Notes: a model not told the origin generated them from the letters alone. Positions 9,704 through 58,808 are shown, counted from the first letter of the stretch. The stretch is DNA of 64,000 nucleotides from a virus (IMGVR_UViG_3300045988_161046:1-64000); one strand, 5' to 3'. Made by a program: numbers and translations.

Positions 9704-9985
9704 ATGATAGTAATAAAAATAAAAACATGGAAAGACTGGAAACAGGACTTTCTTAAATGGGTGCAAGCACCTCGGCGCAGTACTTGCAAGGAGTACGTAG
9801 ATTATATGGAGGCTTTACAAAATCAGGTTCTCTACAAAATAATAAACGACACTTGCGATAAATACGGCAATATGCGTGAGGATCAAATTCAAGACATCAC
9901 CGAGGCAGTCGAGAGATGCGTGGCTGAGTGTGCCCAAGAAATACGCAAGCTAATCGATGATTGCCAGCCCGCAAAATTTCTCTAA
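9704..9985 (+). CDS. hypothetical protein
   Basis: Taken from the ORF track, tiled on the same strand as its neighbours. Confidence 0.5.
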   Translation: MIVIKIKTWKDWKQDFLKWVQAPRRSTCKEYVDYMEALQNQVLYKIINDTCDKYGNMREDQIQDITEAVERCVAECAQEIRKLIDDCQPAKFL

Positions 9986-10094: not shown

Positions 10095-12092
10095 ATGCAA
10101 CAACCACATTTGATATACCTAACCAAATTCCAGCAGCAGTCAGTGTACATGGCTGCGAAGGACGAAAGGGTAATTGCTGCAAGACGTGTGGGTAAAACCG
10201 ACGGTCTTGTGGCTCCCTACGTCTGGATGGCTTCTAACTCCATGCCCGGTATGCTGGGAGCCTGGGTAGCCGTATCACGACAGCAGGGATTCGGCAAGAC
10301 TATTCCTGGTACCATGGCTGCCATGGAACGAATGTTCGGCTTTACGCAGGGCATTCATTTCGGTTGGGGACGGCCACCGAAGCACGCTCGTGAGGCTATC
10401 TTTAAGCCGAAAAGTTATGATAATATCATTTGGTTTGCAAATGGTGCCCAGTGGGTACTTATCTCCCTCTCGCAGACCGCAAGCGCCAACAGTTACACTT
10501 TTTCGGCGATGGTAGGTGACGAGGCCAGGTTCTTCCCCTACAAGAAAGTAACAGATGAGTTGATGCCGGCGTTGTCAGGCCAGACTCACCCTTTGGGAAA
10601 CATCAATTTTACCGATTACAATCCACTCTATAAATCGACAAGATTCCTGTCTGATGCTTCGCTTACTACCAAGGGCAGTTGGCTGGAGCGTGAGGAGGAG
10701 AAGCTTGACCTTACGATAGAATCAGGTAAATTCCAGGGCAAGACTTACAGATGGGTACAGGAGCAGTTGGAAGACTATGCCAACAAGATTATCCGCTACA
10801 ACGACCTTATCTATAATGCCAAAAAGACCGGGCATACTCCCCATGCCGTGCCACCCGATTTGAGATTGATGATACGTGCCATCGCCCTCAAGATGATTAA
10901 GCACGAGGGTCAGTTTAAGATACTGCCAAATCACGGCAACAAGCTCACAAAAAACATGGTTGATATGGCGGTAAACTATAAGCTTGTGGATGCAGCGGAT
11001 GCGGAACTCATCTATGATTACGAATATCTGTTTACGGAAGAAGAATGGTGGGAAATGCAGATGTTCGACAAGGCGGATAAGTTTCGAGACGAATACCTGA
11101 GAGAGCTTCGCCGTTCGGCATTCCTCGTTCGCCGTGCCTCTACCCTCGACAATGTGGACTTGTTGAGTGAGGATTACATCCGAACCATGAAGCGAGATTT
11201 GCCTAACTACACCTTCATGGTTTCCATCCTGAACGTGAAAATCAAGAAATCGAACGATGGTTTCTATTCTAATCTGGATATAGATCATGTGCATGGCTAT
11301 ATAGTGGATGTTGACCCCCTTTCGCAAGCCAACTGGAGCACCCAGAAGGCTACAGGCATCATCGGCGGAAAAAAGATTACATCAGAGAGTTATCAGCCGG
11401 ATTTGAAGGAACTGTCCGAGAGAAACGATTGCCGTATGGATGCTGACTGCATAAACGACCTTCCTCTTTATCTCGCATTCGACTACAATGCGAATATCAA
11501 TACCCTGGTGGTAGGTCAGGTATATCAGCGCGACGGATTGGAGGCAGTGAATGTGATTAAGAGTTTCTATACGAAGAACGAACGGAAGCTGCGTGAACTG
11601 GTAGATGATTTCTCGCATTACTATGCTCCGAAGAGGGCCGTGAACAGGGATGTGGTTTACTTCTACGATTCCACAGCAAAACAAGGTGCATCGTATGCGC
11701 TGACCGATGAGCGATTCTATCAGGCAGTCATTAAAGAGTTGGAGCGCAATGGCTGGAATGTTACGGCGATAGATATGGGTGTGCCGGAGAAGCATGAGGT
11801 GAAACACCGTATCATCAATAATGCCCTTGCCGGTATCGAATATCCTGCTATCCGTATCAATGAGACCCAGAACCCTGATTTGATTATCGCACTGCAGCTC
11901 TGTGAGGTGAGCATAGGCTATCAGGGGTTCCGCAAGGATAAGAGTCAGGAGAAGAAAGCAGAGACGGAAGACAGCCTTCCGTTGCAGCAGAGAACTGACT
12001 TCACCGATGCCTTCGACTCTCTATATTTGGGATGCAAGTTCTGGCGAGGAAATATCGGCTGGTTTGTACTGCCGGACGGAAGGAACGTTTAA
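10095..12092 (+). CDS. terL: terminase large subunit
   Basis: It has a Walker A-like AARRVGKTDG and a Walker B-like SAMVGDEARF. Its size is 665 aa. The C-terminal half contains acidic nuclease-like motifs (LAFDYNANINTL). Confidence 0.8.
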   Translation: MQQPHLIYLTKFQQQSVYMAAKDERVIAARRVGKTDGLVAPYVWMASNSMPGMLGAWVAVSRQQGFGKTIPGTMAAMERMFGFTQGIHFGWGRPPKHAREAIFKPKSYDNIIWFANGAQWVLISLSQTASANSYTFSAMVGDEARFFPYKKVTDELMPALSGQTHPLGNINFTDYNPLYKSTRFLSDASLTTKGSWLEREEEKLDLTIESGKFQGKTYRWVQEQLEDYANKIIRYNDLIYNAKKTGHTPHAVPPDLRLMIRAIALKMIKHEGQFKILPNHGNKLTKNMVDMAVNYKLVDAADAELIYDYEYLFTEEEWWEMQMFDKADKFRDEYLRELRRSAFLVRRASTLDNVDLLSEDYIRTMKRDLPNYTFMVSILNVKIKKSNDGFYSNLDIDHVHGYIVDVDPLSQANWSTQKATGIIGGKKITSESYQPDLKELSERNDCRMDADCINDLPLYLAFDYNANINTLVVGQVYQRDGLEAVNVIKSFYTKNERKLRELVDDFSHYYAPKRAVNRDVVYFYDSTAKQGASYALTDERFYQAVIKELERNGWNVTAIDMGVPEKHEVKHRIINNALAGIEYPAIRINETQNPDLIIALQLCEVSIGYQGFRKDKSQEKKAETEDSLPLQQRTDFTDAFDSLYLGCKFWRGNIGWFVLPDGRNV

Positions 12093-14428: not shown

Positions 14429-15157
14429 TTAAAATGCGTCTTTAATATCACATCCGGCTACTGCCTTATATTCTGCCTTGAGGAAAGAGATCTCATCCTT
14501 CAGGCGCTTAATAGCCTCAGTAGGCTGCTGCCTTTCAAGAGCCAGCTTCCAGTTGCGGTAGGCGTAATAGAACTTGTCGCATAGTTTCAGCTCCTCATTA
14601 GTATACTTATTATTATGCAACATCGGAATGCGCTTTACCTCGTTCAGTTTGCCATCCTCGGTAAGGACAACCAGTCCGGCATAATCGGGAAGAAGGGGAA
14701 GTACTTTTCCACTAAGGTACCATGGTACGCAATAGCAAAAGTAGTTCGGGCAGCGATGCTTTCTTTTGATTACTTCCCGACACTCGCGGTAGATATTCCA
14801 GGCCTTGCCAGTCTTCTTTATATGATAATCAGGGAAAGGCTCAAATTTCGACAAGGCTTTCTCATCCGTTTCTCTACAGACAAAAGTAAGAGAGTGCCAC
14901 TCCCCCGTCTTCAGCAATTCATGCTTCTGCCACTTATGCTTGAAATCGTTCTTGAAATCGGCGAAAGAGATTTTACATTCCACCTCATACCAATATCCGC
15001 TTCGGGTCTTGATGAGCATATCACTCTCCCAGTCGAACACGTATAGGTTTTCTACGATATACGTAGGGTTCGATTTCCAGCCGCGCAAATACTGCTGAAT
15101 AAGCTGCTCTGACACCTGCTCCTTGGTAAGGAGGGTTTGTTTACGCTTTGTTCCCAT
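14429..15157 (-). CDS. PD-(D/E)XK-type nuclease-like protein (MmcB-like)
   Basis: The motif WYEVECKISFADFKNDFKHK resembles the E-x-K core followed by the S..DF..D signature. The family assignment is from memory. Confidence 0.45.
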   Translation of the reverse strand: MGTKRKQTLLTKEQVSEQLIQQYLRGWKSNPTYIVENLYVFDWESDMLIKTRSGYWYEVECKISFADFKNDFKHKWQKHELLKTGEWHSLTFVCRETDEKALSKFEPFPDYHIKKTGKAWNIYRECREVIKRKHRCPNYFCYCVPWYLSGKVLPLLPDYAGLVVLTEDGKLNEVKRIPMLHNNKYTNEELKLCDKFYYAYRNWKLALERQQPTEAIKRLKDEISFLKAEYKAVAGCDIKDAF

Positions 15158-17677: not shown

Positions 17678-18014
17678 AATCTTCTTCTTTTATTTTTTCT
17701 GTAATTGCGATATTTCCGTCTGAATCAATATCAACGCTGCATTCTCCCGTTTTATGCCAGCCATTTGGATATTGGAAGGTTAAAACTTTATCTCCCCTTG
17801 AATGGCGAAAAGAAAGATTTGCCAACAGACGTTTTTTGCTGATCAGCGGTTCAAATGAGCGGAAACGAATACAATCTCTAGTTTGATCATCCTTCTTGGG
17901 AGCTGAAAAATATCTTATCCATGGACCGCCATCGAACCATGCTACGAGATAGATAATAGCATCATCCCTTGCATTTTGAAAGGCAGGGGTAGATAACAAC
18001 TCTTGCTTTGTCAT
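17667..18014 (-). CDS. hypothetical protein
   Basis: Taken from the ORF track. Confidence 0.5.
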   Translation of the reverse strand: MTKQELLSTPAFQNARDDAIIYLVAWFDGGPWIRYFSAPKKDDQTRDCIRFRSFEPLISKKRLLANLSFRHSRGDKVLTFQYPNGWHKTGECSVDIDSDGNIAITEKIKEEDYAR

Positions 18015-42018: not shown

Positions 42019-42106
42019 AAAATCTGACTTTTCGTTTACCTAAATCTGACTTTTCGTTTACCTAAATCTGACCTTTCGTTTACCTAAATCTGACCTTTCG
42101 TTTACC
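42019..42106 (+). repeat. four tandem 22-bp iterons (TAAATCTGACYTTTCGTTTACC)
   Basis: Read directly. Copies 1-2 have T at the variable position and copies 3-4 have C. Confidence 0.95.
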
Positions 42107-42205
42107 TAGAACTTTGTAAGTACTTAAATATCAGCACGTTAAGATTTTCCTAATATATATAATATAGATAATCTTATAATTTTCTATTTAAAGACTCCGT
42201 TTTTA
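42107..42205. promoter_or_regulatory. AT-rich spacer (candidate DNA-unwinding element) of the iteron origin
   Basis: The tract ...aatatatataatatagataatcttataattttctatttaaag... lies between the direct and inverted iterons. Confidence 0.5.
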
Positions 42206-48397: not shown

Positions 48398-48583
48398 CTA
48401 TAATGAAGGGTTTTCCTGCGCCTTTAAGGTCGCAGCCTCGATAGCGCGTACAATATCCGTGATATATCTGCTGCCTCCATGTTTTCTTATCCAGTTGTGA
48501 ACGTCATTGGGTACTACGTATTTATGCACGCTGCCCTCGGCTGCGCGTCTGCCTCTCTTATTCGTTGTTTTAATATTCTCCAT
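48398..48583 (-). CDS. small RHH-like DNA-binding protein
   Basis: The sequence RGRRAAEGSVHKYVVPNDVHNWIRKHGGSRYITDIVRAIEAA fits a beta-alpha-alpha pattern. It is divergent from the plus-strand RNA unit. Confidence 0.45.
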   Translation of the reverse strand: MENIKTTNKRGRRAAEGSVHKYVVPNDVHNWIRKHGGSRYITDIVRAIEAATLKAQENPSL

Positions 48584-48677
48584 AAAAATCCGCTTATCCG
48601 TGATGCAGTAGGGCTGTAAATTTATTAAAATTCTATAATAATTCGGGTGAAATGATACAATGTATCGTTTTATTCCT

Positions 48678-48685
48678 TAAATTTG
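48678..48685 (+). promoter_or_regulatory. -7 box TAAATTTG on the plus strand
   Basis: It matches TAnnTTTG. It points into an ORF-free stretch antisense to the surrounding genes. Confidence 0.45.
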
Positions 48686-48704
48686 CACTCGTCTTCGGAA
48701 GGCT

Positions 48705-48750
48705 TTTAATCGTACCTTTATGGATATTGATTTAATCGTACCTTTATGGA
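48705..48750 (+). repeat. two spacerless tandem copies of TTTAATCGTACCTTTATGGA (26-bp period); the second is followed by ATGGAAAG
   Basis: Read directly. Read as CTTTTAATCGTACCTTTATGGAATGGAAAG, it resembles 30-nt class 1 (Cas6-processed) repeats that end in ATTGAAA-N. Confidence 0.8.
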
Positions 48751-48826
48751 ATGGAAAGAGCAATAAAAACTTCCGTTGACGGTCAGACTTTCAAAAGTCT
48801 GTGGATTTAAACGCTCTTAATGAGCC

Positions 48827-48867
48827 AAATTTCTACTATAGTAGATTCGAGACGCCAGACTCGCAGT
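48827..48867 (+). CRISPR. solitary type V-A (Cas12a) repeat 3' handle AAATTTCTACTATAGTAGAT plus a 21-nt guide-like segment TCGAGACGCCAGACTCGCAGT
   Basis: The handle matches the consensus AAUUUCUACU-N3-5-GUAGAU (stem UCUAC/GUAGA, loop UAUA). The orientation agrees with the plus-strand promoter and terminator. There is only a single unit and no cas gene in the window. Confidence 0.6.
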
Positions 48868-48892
48868 GCCCCGGCTTAGGTCGGGGCTTTTT
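48868..48892 (+). terminator. intrinsic terminator GCCCCG-gcttaggt-CGGGGC + TTTTT
   Basis: A 6-bp GC stem is followed by a T5 tract on the plus strand only. It overlaps the stop codon of 48876..49268 on the other strand. Confidence 0.7.
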
Positions 48893-49268
48893 CGTTTCGT
48901 GCATAAACGCCAATTTTATGAAACTCCAACGTCGTGTGGTTATCAGGATAACTACAGTCCTCAAACATAACCCAATAACCTTGCTTGTCCAGGAATATCT
49001 GACCGATTGAGCTTGCAAAGTCCTTTGGTTCGCCTGCCAATCTATTGCATATTATCCTAGTCAAGTCTTTATAAGGCTGTCTTTGTTCGTCTATGATACG
49101 GAAAGAGTATATATTCTTATCTCTTCCGGTAATCGTCAGCGTGGTTATTAACCCTTCGATCGTTCCAACTCTTTTGTATGTATCACCCTTACACTCCAAA
49201 GACTCACCATTATCAAACAATCGTCTTGCAAGAAACGTTGTCGTATTGCTACAAATAATCTCAGACAT
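48876..49268 (-). CDS. hypothetical protein
   Basis: Taken from the ORF track. Confidence 0.55.
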   Translation of the reverse strand: MSEIICSNTTTFLARRLFDNGESLECKGDTYKRVGTIEGLITTLTITGRDKNIYSFRIIDEQRQPYKDLTRIICNRLAGEPKDFASSIGQIFLDKQGYWVMFEDCSYPDNHTTLEFHKIGVYARNEKAPT

Positions 49269-49309
49269 AATTATTCCGCTTAACCGTGATGCGCCTAGGG
49301 CTGAAATGA

Positions 49310-49840
49310 TTATTCCTTAAAATTTACACCTTTGAGCGGATCATTATCACCGCTGTTCTCAATCCTGATGCCTTCCGGCTTTTCCAGAAGGAGTTTTCTC
49401 GTAGCCTCCAGCATCATAATGGTGTGGATGGTGGCCTGTCTTGCGTGATAATCTGAGCCGGCATCATCCACATACTGCTTATTCATGCGGACCAACGTGT
49501 TCAGGAAGTCAGCGCACTCCTCGCGGCTCGGATTCTTCACGTGAACCTCGCAGGTAACAGCCTTCATGAAGTACTCCATACCCTTCTTCAATAAGGTTCT
49601 TATTCTGCCCGTATCAGGGTGCTGTCCTATCATCTGGTGAATCTTGATTCTCAGGCTGCACCCATGGCGAGGGAAACCGATGCGGTAATCATCGCCTACC
49701 TCCTCCTTTTCCTCGTCGATGTAATCTACCTTTGCGATAAAACCGCAATCCTTATCAGTGCAGACAAGGAAGTCGCACTCACCACGCTTGTGATTTCGCA
49801 GCGTGTCTATAATAAACAGGGGAATTTCTCTTTTTGCCAT
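49310..49840 (-). CDS. hypothetical protein
   Basis: Taken from the ORF track. Confidence 0.55.
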   Translation of the reverse strand: MAKREIPLFIIDTLRNHKRGECDFLVCTDKDCGFIAKVDYIDEEKEEVGDDYRIGFPRHGCSLRIKIHQMIGQHPDTGRIRTLLKKGMEYFMKAVTCEVHVKNPSREECADFLNTLVRMNKQYVDDAGSDYHARQATIHTIMMLEATRKLLLEKPEGIRIENSGDNDPLKGVNFKE

Positions 49841-51473: not shown

Positions 51474-52031
51474 CTATGCCGCATCACCTTGCGCATAGCG
51501 CTTATTGTGGCAGGCCTTATATTCCTCCTCGGTCATACCTTTCTCAGTAAGATAATTCTCCCATTGACCTTCACGGATGTACTCCTCTTTCTTTTCCTCG
51601 AAGGTATGAGGAGCGAAGCTCTCAGCAACGTAATAAGCCTCACATCGCAGTTCGATGCCATCGCCTATCCACTGTCCTGATAATAGACGGTTCTCCTCGT
51701 CCGGGTCTTCCTCATCCTCCTCCATCTGCTCATCGAAATGCTCGATAGCGTATTTAATTATCGTGCGGATGTCCTTCGCCCATGAGCTGGTATCGTCAGG
51801 GCTGATATTGCATTCCTGCAGTACCATATTCACCAGCTCGTCGATACCCTTGCGACTCTTGATGTATGCGTTGTGATAGAAGTCGAAAGGGATGATGTGA
51901 TCCAACTTCCAGTCCTTCTCCTCATTGACCGATGGTCGGCCGTATGCCTTGCGGCTCTCTTCTGTTACCTGCACTTCTTCTACATTCTCAATAACGTTCA
52001 TACCGTTCTCTTTATTATTCTTTGCTTCCAT
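51474..52031 (-). CDS. acidic hypothetical protein (start trimmed to MEAKNNK)
   Basis: The ORF track gives 51474..52049. The region upstream of 52031 aligns with the conserved leader motif of the neighbouring genes. Confidence 0.55.
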   Translation of the reverse strand: MEAKNNKENGMNVIENVEEVQVTEESRKAYGRPSVNEEKDWKLDHIIPFDFYHNAYIKSRKGIDELVNMVLQECNISPDDTSSWAKDIRTIIKYAIEHFDEQMEEDEEDPDEENRLLSGQWIGDGIELRCEAYYVAESFAPHTFEEKKEEYIREGQWENYLTEKGMTEEEYKACHNKRYAQGDAA

Positions 52032-52866: not shown

Positions 52867-53484
52867 AGGGTATGTGATAAACTCGGAGATGCTCATCTGC
52901 TCGAAGATGTTGTAATAAGCCATTATTTCCAGGCGATCATCGCCGTTCTTAGCCCCGATTTCAGCCTTCACTATATAATACAGCATGTAGGCAAGATAGG
53001 CTTCCTGACAGTCGCTCGTATGGTTAAATAAGGCTGCACGGTTCCAGTCTTTAATATCATTACTCAGAAAGGACCAGAACCCATCGCTGGAAGAGTGATT
53101 TTCCTTGATCCAGACGGCTATCTCTTCACGGTGATTTCTTACCTTTGCTATAATTGCCTTCTTTGCCTCGCTAGATAACCCGATTTTAACCTGGATGGTA
53201 TCGGTGCTGAAATTATAAGCCAGTGGGTGCTGAACACCTACGAAGGATAATTTAATATCTTTGCAAACATACTGCTGGAGCCAGCGTTCCCACTGCTTGG
53301 TGTATGCCTCGCAAACTGCCTTCTGGTAACTGTCTTCATTGAAGGTGAAATCCTCATCCTCTACAACTTCGTTCCGGTACTCGTAATCTGATACCTCAAA
53401 AGAAGAATCCCAGATAGTCTGATACAAGCCTTCGAAGCTTACCAGGTCGATGTTTGATACATCTAATTTCTTTTTCTTTTCCAT
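52846..53484 (-). CDS. hypothetical protein
   Basis: Taken from the ORF track. Confidence 0.55.
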   Translation of the reverse strand: MEKKKKLDVSNIDLVSFEGLYQTIWDSSFEVSDYEYRNEVVEDEDFTFNEDSYQKAVCEAYTKQWERWLQQYVCKDIKLSFVGVQHPLAYNFSTDTIQVKIGLSSEAKKAIIAKVRNHREEIAVWIKENHSSSDGFWSFLSNDIKDWNRAALFNHTSDCQEAYLAYMLYYIVKAEIGAKNGDDRLEIMAYYNIFEQMSISEFITYPGNNKAA

Positions 53485-53541
53485 AACCTTAAAATTTTAA
53501 ATGTTCTATAATATGTTATTTTTCTTTATTCCCAGGGAATC

Positions 53542-58049: not shown

Positions 58050-58808
58050 TTAATAATCATACAGCGAAAAGGCAGTGGGACCTTCCAGTTTGAAAGCGGT
58101 CTCTACATATACCAGCTGACTTATGTAGTTTCGATAAGCTTTATATTCGGTACGGCAAGCATTAGCGGCATAAGTCAAGGAGCCATGCTCATTTACGCCG
58201 CCATCCTCTATGCCGGCATTGGTTAACGCGCCTCTTACTATATCAAAGCGGTCTTCTATCATCGCATTATAGCGAGCCAAAGGTGCAAGAGTCTCCTCTA
58301 GGCTCATAGGTACCGACTGAAATACCTGGTTGCCGAGACTGATGCCGCCACCTGCTACCTTATGAAATACCTGACGATATACCTCGAATACCGGACGAAC
58401 CCTGCGGGCGATAAAAAACTCAAGGCATGGAACACTAAGCATGTAAGCATTCTGCGGGCGGCCCATCACGCTTTTACCGTCAGTTTGCGTGTCATCAGAC
58501 TTTTCCCCATTTTGGGGGAAAACTCCCGACTTTTTGCCATTTTGGGCAAAAACTCCAGACTTTTGAGCATTCTGGGAGAAAACTCCAGACTTTTGAGCAT
58601 TTGTGCTCAAAACCTGATAATCAATGTCTTTCACGAATAAATTACTCTTTGCTAATGCTCTTACAGCATCGGAGCGGAACTTAAATACCAATGGCCACAC
58701 CTCATCCAAATTCACTGGAAATTCCTCTTTGCTTCTTGAAAGGTTCAACACTTGGATAAAGTAAGCCTTTACCTCACTATCACTACTCTGTTTTGTTAGC
58801 TGAATCAT
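58050..58808 (-). CDS. putative DNA-binding/antirepressor-like protein with internal tandem peptide repeats (start trimmed to MIQLTKQ)
   Basis: The N-terminal FPVNLDEVWPLVFKFRSDAVRAL is reminiscent of phage Ant/KilA-type N-domains, but only weakly. The repeats QNAQKSGVFSQNAQKSGVFAQNGKKSGVFPQNGEKS are encoded by DNA repeats of roughly 30 bp at about 58500-58600. Confidence 0.4.
   Translation of the reverse strand: MIQLTKQSSDSEVKAYFIQVLNLSRSKEEFPVNLDEVWPLVFKFRSDAVRALAKSNLFVKDIDYQVLSTNAQKSGVFSQNAQKSGVFAQNGKKSGVFPQNGEKSDDTQTDGKSVMGRPQNAYMLSVPCLEFFIARRVRPVFEVYRQVFHKVAGGGISLGNQVFQSVPMSLEETLAPLARYNAMIEDRFDIVRGALTNAGIEDGGVNEHGSLTYAANACRTEYKAYRNYISQLVYVETAFKLEGPTAFSLYDY

Follow-up and report, generated by a model that had tools for sequence, protein, structure and literature searches.

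We report that the + strand of a 64,000-nt stretch of viral DNA (IMGVR_UViG_3300045988_161046:1-64000, hereafter the window) probably encodes, at 48688-48893, a non-coding, structured RNA of the phage, about 205 nt long, as predicted from its sequence, and that this RNA joins a near copy of the type I-B CRISPR repeat of Prevotella and Segatella, present twice and head to tail, with the Cas12a handle of type V-A systems. The reading that we favor, and to which we assign a probability of roughly two in three, is that of an RNA anti-CRISPR (Racr-like) decoy with two targets, the I-B and the V-A systems of a Prevotella-type host. That mimics of two CRISPR classes might be carried by one RNA had been proposed in a first-pass annotation of the window, and the proposal gains support from the conservation of promoter and terminator signals, from covariation, and from spacers of both systems that match this phage family next to the correct PAMs.

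A Predicted RNA Gene Conserved among Related Phages

The 20-bp repeat, the inverted repeat and the Cas12a handle all lie inside a single predicted + strand RNA gene, with the handle about 100 bases downstream of the I-B repeat copies (Table 1). The gene is preceded by a predicted promoter box of the TAnnTTTG type, which we take to be the −7 promoter box of Bacteroidetes sigma-A, and in 116 of 119 family members this box ends 5-6 nt 5′ of a conserved TCTTCGG. At the other end, the predicted intrinsic terminator is kept across the family (alignment of 56 members) and overlaps the 3′ end of a convergent minus-strand ORF (48876-49268), of which the stop and the last codons, in a reading frame of 130 aa, fall within the terminator hairpin. 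The ORFs around the RNA gene are all on the minus strand. A longer segment that includes the box (48589-48690, with TTATTCCTTAAA(A)TTT) recurs at 49275-49330 minus about 50 nt internally (repeat families D7, D11, D13 and D14), where it lies upstream of the next minus-strand ORF, and the two may represent a shared divergent promoter or leader of small early-type genes.

Relatives of the RNA gene were collected by the anchors CTTCCGTTGA ... ATTTCTACTAT, which belong to other parts of the element than the 20-mer, and this anchored search gave a family of at least 118 related phage contigs; the 20-mer itself is present in 34 IMG/VR contigs of 50-106 kb. A BLAST search with the RNA gene region (317 bp) found no match among deposited phage genomes, and no Rfam family reached the gathering threshold anywhere in the window. 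A small ORF from an ATG inside the repeat was also considered and was rejected, as most relatives read ATG GAA TAG at this point and no conserved ORF is present in the RNA gene family.

Table 1. Position of the predicted RNA gene's parts, of the neighboring 61-aa ORF and of the protospacers of type V-A arrays in the window
Feature	Position	Strand	Remarks
61-aa ORF	48398-48583	-	Divergent; Pfam and PHROG searches without a significant hit
Predicted promoter -7 box TAAATTTG	48678-48685	+	TAnnTTTG type; predicted transcription start ~48688-48691
Helix P1, 5′ strand (UCGUC..CGG.AA)	48689-48700	+	Partner 48771-48782; RNAalifold
I-B mimic copy 1 (CTTTTAATCGTACCTTTATGGA-T-ATTGA)	48703-48730	+	Derived extra copy; 1-nt insertion, truncated tag
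I-B mimic copy 2 GATTTAATCGTACCTTTATGGAATGGAAAG	48729-48758	+	Full length; 8-nt tag AUGGAAAG, host tag AUUGAAAN
A-rich unpaired linker AGCAATAAAAA	48759-48769	+	Sequence variable, length 9-11 nt in most members
Helix P1, 3′ strand (UUCCG..GACGG)	48771-48782	+	RNAalifold and pair counts
Helix P2, inverted repeat CAGACTTT/AAAGTCTG	48784-48791 / 48794-48801	+	8 bp, perfect
Helix P3 (GCUC UUAAU GAGC)	48813-48825	+	Directly 5′ of the Cas12a handle
Cas12a (type V-A) handle AATTTCTACTATAGTAGAT = AAUUUCUACUAUAGUAGAU	48828-48846	+	Exact; single occurrence in the window
Spacer-like segment, 21 nt after the handle	48847-48867	+	Folds as a hairpin
Predicted intrinsic terminator GCCCCGGC UUAG GUCGGGGC, then UUUUU	48868-48892	+	Hairpin 48868-48887 and T run
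V-A protospacer	9806-9834		29/29
V-A protospacer	14543-14569		26/27; PAM GTTC
V-A protospacer	17778-17806		28/29
V-A protospacer	51597-51625		29/29
V-A protospacer	53459-53487		27/29

The Repeat Mimic and the Type I-B Arrays of Prevotella and Segatella

The 20-mer TTTAATCGTACCTTTATGGA occurs as two exact copies 26 bp apart (48705-48724 and 48731-48750), just as the first-pass annotation had described, and a search with its 17-mer core, allowing up to three mismatches, gave just two sites in 64 kb (mean in shuffled sequence, 0.13). The same annotation had likened the unit to Cas6-processed repeats of class 1. This likeness is borne out, since a similar repeat does exist in CRISPR arrays of Prevotella and Segatella, and the subtype can be refined to I-B. 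Among the loci listed, the consensus of the phage unit is identical with the array repeats at 27 of 30 positions; by hand count, copy 2 in the window shares 26 of 30 positions with the Prevotella repeat GTTTCAATCGTACCTTTATGGAATTGAAAT, and the best phage variant among the loci listed (TTTCAATCG...) shares 28 of 30 with the same array (L147). A 24-nt core, AATCGTACCTTTATGGAATTGAAA, is identical between phage relatives and host arrays. The 30-mer CTTTTAATCG...ATGGAAAG, which had been given as the second copy with its flanks, is a chimera, in that its "CT" comes from the left side of copy 1 and copy 2 follows "GA"; it is nevertheless close to the ancestral single-copy sequence of 101 of the 118 relatives.

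The host arrays came from a scan of genomes, one for each species, for paired copies of ATGGAATNGAAA at array-like spacing, which gave at least 120 loci; those listed are mostly CRISPR arrays, many of them from Bacteroidales. The matching arrays of Prevotella and Segatella (L147, L128, L148, L151 and L171, for example) have 30-nt repeats in 5 to 85 copies, among them the arrays of Prevotella MAG HGM04827 (L147, the repeat GTTTCAATCGTACCTTTATGGAATTGAAAT above, 52 copies), Prevotella sp. B2-R-102 (L128, GTTCTAATCGTACCTTTATGGAATTGAAAT, 76 copies), Prevotella RUG318 (L148, GTCTTAATCGTACCTTTATGGAATTGAAAC, 63 copies) and Segatella cerevisiae DSM 100619 (L151, GTTTTACTCGTACCTTTATGGAATTGAAAC, 85 copies). 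The genes cas4-cas1-cas2 precede these arrays on the same strand. The array-adjacent Cas1 scores 432-451 bits against TIGR03641, the model of type I-B Cas1b (cut-off 304), and the subtype is therefore I-B. The phage unit and the host repeats agree in the length of 30 nt, in the 24-nt core and in the orientation to the 8-nt tag, but the host arrays have spacers of 34-37 nt and cas genes, whereas the phage has neither, and there are frequent differences in the first base and in the tag (host ATTGAAAN versus window ATGGAAAG). No repeat-spacer array was found in the window, which holds two core copies without a spacer, one V-A handle and no CRISPR-like array by Tandem Repeats Finder; nor were cas-like domains found in the ten window ORFs scanned, which include all those beside the RNA gene.

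These I-B systems target the phage family. At least 14 different spacers of the array in Prevotella MAG HGM04827 match family loci (fetched parts), 7 of them at 100% identity, and a 5′-CCN PAM is found at 13 of the 14 protospacers. The matches of the sampled I-B spacers lie in relatives only, and none is to the window.

Within the phage family, the 19-nt core of the mimic, AATCGNACCTTTATGGAAT (also written AAUCGUACCUUUAUGGAAU), is nearly invariant though unpaired, while the adjoining linker varies, as seen in an alignment of 56 non-redundant members (A1). The 8-nt tag is less constant: it differs from that of the host in about 70% of family members, with AUAGAAA as the commonest form and AUAGAAAG among its variants.

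Origin of the Tandem Copies

The unit is solitary in 101 of the 118 relatives, typically as CTTTTAATCGTACCTTTATGGAATTGAAAG or TTTCAATCGTACCTTTATGGAATAGAAAG, and it is strictly a doublet in the window. The duplication was found in 16 of the 118, that is, in the window and in 15 other independent contigs, and as judged from these sequences the tandem form is a derived minority state, one copy being the norm. Because all 16 have the 26-nt period and the junction ...ATGGA-T-ATTGA|TTTAATCG... (the GGATATTGA junction) in common, a single origin by a 25-nt duplication and a 1-nt insertion is suggested, and the presence of the identical GGATATTGA junction in the 15 other independent contigs excludes an assembly artefact. 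Copy 2 of the duplicated members has four different tags (AATGGAAAG, AATAGAAAG, AATAAAAAG and AATTGAAAG) and either CGT or CGA, and the duplication is found in at least three different backgrounds of helix P2 and spacer-position hairpin. It has therefore persisted, and was probably spread by recombination. The first-pass annotation had stated that there is no spacer between the copies, and this is indeed what a 26-nt period means for a 30-nt repeat: the copies abut or overlap, and the doublet is thus not a mini-array.

Structure and Covariation of the RNA

The consensus structure of A1, obtained by RNAalifold, consists of the long-range helix P1, the hairpins P2 and P3, the stem of the Cas12a handle and the terminator. 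When the pairs were counted on A1, 97.2% of the cells were paired and 9 pairs had changes on both sides (102 cells), whereas in a control on the same alignment with the partner columns slid by 1-3 the pairing falls to 28-46%. The window RNA folds at −62.5 kcal/mol, with a z-score of −3.3 versus shuffles.

Helix P1 has 95.5% of its cells paired and one covarying pair, which is CG in 25, UA in 11 and UG in 7 sequences. In the modeled structure, the I-B repeat mimic would be presented in a loop closed by P1; in place of P1, a local 5′ hairpin (GUCUUCGGAAGAC) could form. Helix P2 corresponds to the 8-bp inverted repeat already recorded in the first-pass annotation, and is the best supported of the helices, with compensatory changes at 4 of 6 pairs (e.g., CAGACU/AGUCUG, CAAUUC/GAAUUG and CAGGC/GCCUG). 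In P3, 99.6% of the cells of A1 are paired, and CG is replaced by UA in 7 sequences.

The Cas12a Handle and Type V-A Arrays

The stem of the Cas12a handle is invariant in the 56 aligned sequences, and metagenomic V-A arrays have the same handle apart from a loop base. The 21-22 nt that follow it form a hairpin of 4-7 bp in all 28 family variants, with at least four different stem sequences, the hairpin of the window being a weakened variant (−3.3 kcal/mol). As this hairpin is kept by compensatory changes while the seed positions 6-10 vary, selection appears to act on the structure and not on a target. In three IMG/VR relatives (L006, L016 and L020) the I-B mimic is kept and the handle is truncated (GTCTACATTGTAGAT), deleted, or mutated in its stem (…CGAAGAT), which shows that loss of one module need not entail loss of the other.

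Metagenomes were scanned for V-A arrays that use the handle AATTTCTACTATNGTAGAT, and at least 120 loci were obtained, on contigs without a taxon label. At least 20 spacers of these arrays match the phage family, and TTTV is found at 12 of 20 protospacers, including 7 of the 8 exact matches. The protospacers in the window (Table 1) are matched by the arrays L273, L335 and L354, and TTTV is found at three of the four for which the PAM was read, including both of the full matches; hosts with Cas12a must therefore have met this phage or a near relative. Moreover, three family contigs (L076, L031 and L010) are matched by both I-B and V-A arrays. The phage family thus meets both I-B and V-A immunity, the former seen in the array of a Prevotella MAG and the latter on metagenome contigs.

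The V-A repeats of the loci L242-L361 that target the family begin with a small covarying 4-bp hairpin (GGCUAGUAAGCU, GGCUAUAAAGCC or GUCUAUAAGGAC), followed by 5 nt and then by the handle, and in the phage RNA the hairpin P3 sits 1-2 nt before the handle (48813-48846 for the two together). In light of this leading hairpin in the host repeats, P3 and the handle may mimic the full 36-nt repeat, in shape and not in sequence.

A host-encoded composite element was also looked for and was rejected. Six I-B-like 12-mers were found in V-A loci, and these are chance matches: five lie far from any handle on the same strand and one some 5 kb away from the array, four have a recurring context in common, and none has the repeat core upstream. 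Four solitary V-A handles in host loci are followed by unrelated sequence.

A Proposed Two-Target Decoy and Alternative Explanations

As a decoy, the RNA would present the copy of the host I-B repeat, doubled in this genome, in the unpaired loop closed by P1. By extension from validated Racr RNAs, Cas6b and possibly the tag-reading subunits of Cascade would bind this mimic, and Cas12a would bind and probably process the handle, so that the Cas proteins would be titrated away from those host crRNAs that target the phage. Neither trapped complex could guide interference, because the spacer positions are taken by fixed self-paired structures that are not derived from a target; the compensated hairpin after the handle fits a dead guide. 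With the duplication, Cas6 would gain a second binding site, and the RNA 5′ of the main Cas6 cut would measure about 63 nt instead of about 37 nt, near the size of a natural I-B crRNA, which is about 64-67 nt. Cleavage of both copies would yield a spacerless RNA with the tag fused straight onto the 3′ handle. We suggest, more tentatively, that the decoy could disable I-B Cas6b/Cascade, possibly together with crRNA-sharing type III effectors, as well as Cas12a in the same host, and that the spacerless tag-handle RNA could trap the handle-binding subunits without the Cas7 backbone; no description of such a mode of inhibition was found in the literature. If the decoy reading is true, phages can combine repeat mimicry across CRISPR classes in one transcript; the RNA anti-CRISPRs described to date mimic a single system. 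With at least 118 contigs, this family of human-gut Prevotella phages is abundant, and its element is a tangible candidate for the first Racr of type I-B. As a compact natural scaffold, the RNA might serve to turn off I-B and Cas12a tools at once. The finding also links these uncultured phages to Prevotella hosts and shows that in nature they face I-B as well as V-A immunity.

It seems unlikely that the RNA is a regulatory guide of the Cracr, CreR or CreA kind, in which short-seed units would send Cascade and/or Cas12a to the promoters of cas genes or of CRISPR-guarding toxins for repression without cleavage. In the V-A module a single repeat-like unit is followed by some 21 nt of spacer-like sequence and by a terminator, a layout that it shares with CracrVA1 and CreR, and I-B CreA RNAs as well as I-B Cracr candidates have been reported. 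However, in 855 kb of V-A loci (promoters mostly outside) no spacer-like segment of the family has a 9-nt seed match next to a TTTV PAM, and in short-query BLAST against the fetched host loci, with promoters again mostly outside, both spacer-like segments match at chance level only. The variation at the seed positions, compensated so as to keep the hairpin, also argues against a guide, as does the order after the I-B tag, where a variable A-rich linker comes before the paired strand of P1. A phage mini-array, from which host Cas proteins would mature phage crRNAs against competing phages or host genes, is very improbable. Viral mini-arrays with host-like repeats are known, and the order of I-B repeat, 52 nt, V-A repeat, 21 nt and terminator looks array-like, but the I-B copies have no spacer, no second repeat of the same type follows either spacer-like segment, and these segments are self-paired helices conserved throughout the family instead of variable target-derived sequences, without significant matches in the fetched host loci.

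The element might also be a neutral remnant, a piece of host array or leader captured by recombination, with the 26-nt duplication a functionless slip of replication. Phages do acquire fragments of host arrays, the tag is degenerate in many members, and the handle losses in L006, L016 and L020 fit this explanation; we nevertheless regard it as improbable, given that the unit keeps one position within a covarying RNA that has a predicted promoter and terminator of its own in at least 118 contigs, that the core is nearly invariant while neighboring unpaired bases vary, and that the duplication persists in several sequence backgrounds. Hardly probable at all is an operator, that is, two 20-bp direct repeats acting as DNA bound by an adjacent small RHH-like protein and having no role as RNA, which was the alternative named by the first-pass annotation. 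The repeats do lie just downstream of a divergent promoter region beside the 61-aa ORF, and a homolog of this ORF is nearby in at least 13 of the 16 duplicated relatives. On the other hand, 101 of the 118 relatives have but one copy, and about half of the loci have the RNA gene without a detectable homolog of the 61-aa ORF within 1.5 kb, which weakens the operator idea. The neighbor had been called an RHH protein, an assignment that the Pfam and PHROG searches (Table 1) did not confirm, with no DNA-binding domain detectable. Moreover, an operator leaves unexplained why a near copy of a host CRISPR repeat should lie, in crRNA sense, inside the transcript. The 61-aa ORF may still encode a regulator of the shared promoter region.

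Relation to Known Repeat-Mimicking RNAs

The I-B unit of this family has been catalogued before. SRUFinder lists the family as I-B solitary repeat units, which are Racr candidates (Camara-Wilpert et al. 2023, PMC10651486, supplementary file 3); the rows IMGVR_UViG_3300029522_000004 (1686-1713), 3300029566_000010 and 3300029459_000001 correspond to our L029, L054 and L090, give TTTTAATCGTACCTTTATGGAATAGAAA and similar sequences, and are typed as I-B, and the core occurs at least about 117 times in that table (PMC10651486). This listing covers the 28-30-nt hit alone, whereas here the whole composite RNA is described. None of the SRUFinder rows listed carries the V-A handle of the family, and the tandem form would fail SRUFinder because its filter demands "not associated with other repeats". 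The candidates tested in that study were of types I-C, I-E, I-F and V-A, with no I-B among them, and two unit types in one transcript are not discussed (PMC10651486).

RacrIF1 was shown to form an aberrant Cas6f-Cas7f complex in a dose-dependent manner, and three V-A Racrs to inhibit the Cas12a of Moraxella bovoculi (PMC10651486). Like the phage RNA described here, RacrIF1 and RacrVA1-3 are small RNAs of phage origin that reproduce a host repeat; RacrIF1 and RacrVA1-3 compete with crRNAs for Cas proteins. They mimic one system each, whereas the phage RNA joins mimics of class 1 and class 2, and its class 1 unit lies in a closed loop and is here followed directly, with no spacer, by a second copy in the same direction. 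Inhibition by RacrIF1 resides in a long leader 5′ of the Cas6 site, whereas the leader of the phage RNA is short. The V-A part of the phage RNA resembles CracrVA1 and CreR in its single repeat-like unit, its spacer-like segment of about 21 nt and its intrinsic terminator; CracrVA1 is of viral origin, and Cas12a processes it (Liu et al., bioRxiv 10.1101/2024.10.29.618823). Cracr activity, however, needs a PAM-flanked seed match to the cas12a promoter, and none was found for the phage RNA in the 855 kb of V-A loci (promoters mostly outside); unlike in Cracr, the segment at the spacer position keeps a compensated hairpin. Cracr candidates have been reported from Pseudomonadota, Bacillota and Actinomycetota, not from Bacteroidota (bioRxiv 10.1101/2024.10.29.618823).

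In the literature we found neither a two-class or chimeric Racr nor I-B plus V-A systems in Prevotella copri, and neither the composite two-class RNA nor the spacerless duplication was found described. The view of the first-pass annotation that the arrangement had not been described thus holds for the composite form, but not for the I-B unit alone, which is in the SRUFinder list. What is known is the Racr-type repeat mimic with a catalogued I-B unit, and what is new is the two-class composite RNA together with the spacerless duplication.

A different full-length copy of an I-B repeat, GTTCTTATCGTACCTTTATGGAATTGAAAT, was found in an unrelated phage contig (L362, 7447-7476, − strand). It belongs to the second I-B group of solitary repeat units in the 2023 list (GTTCTTATCGTACC...) and, as far as its sequence tells, is an independent I-B solitary repeat unit. 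No V-A handle is found in about 300 nt downstream of it, and the pairing of I-B and V-A units therefore appears to be specific to the present phage family.

Other Repeats in the Window

Three further kinds of repeats were seen in the window. An intergenic region at 42020-42108 holds a 22-nt unit, AAATCTGACCTTTCGTTTACCT, in four near-perfect tandem copies (98% matches), and a 30-nt unit, CAGACTTTTCACCATTTTGGGAGAAAACTC, is repeated 3.6 times at 58496-58602 (83% matches). The octamer AAAGGTAA (TTTTTACC on the other strand) forms short arrays at 12091, 39623, 40649, 40706, 51228, 60973 and 61099, which may represent a phage-specific regulatory or terminator-like signal.
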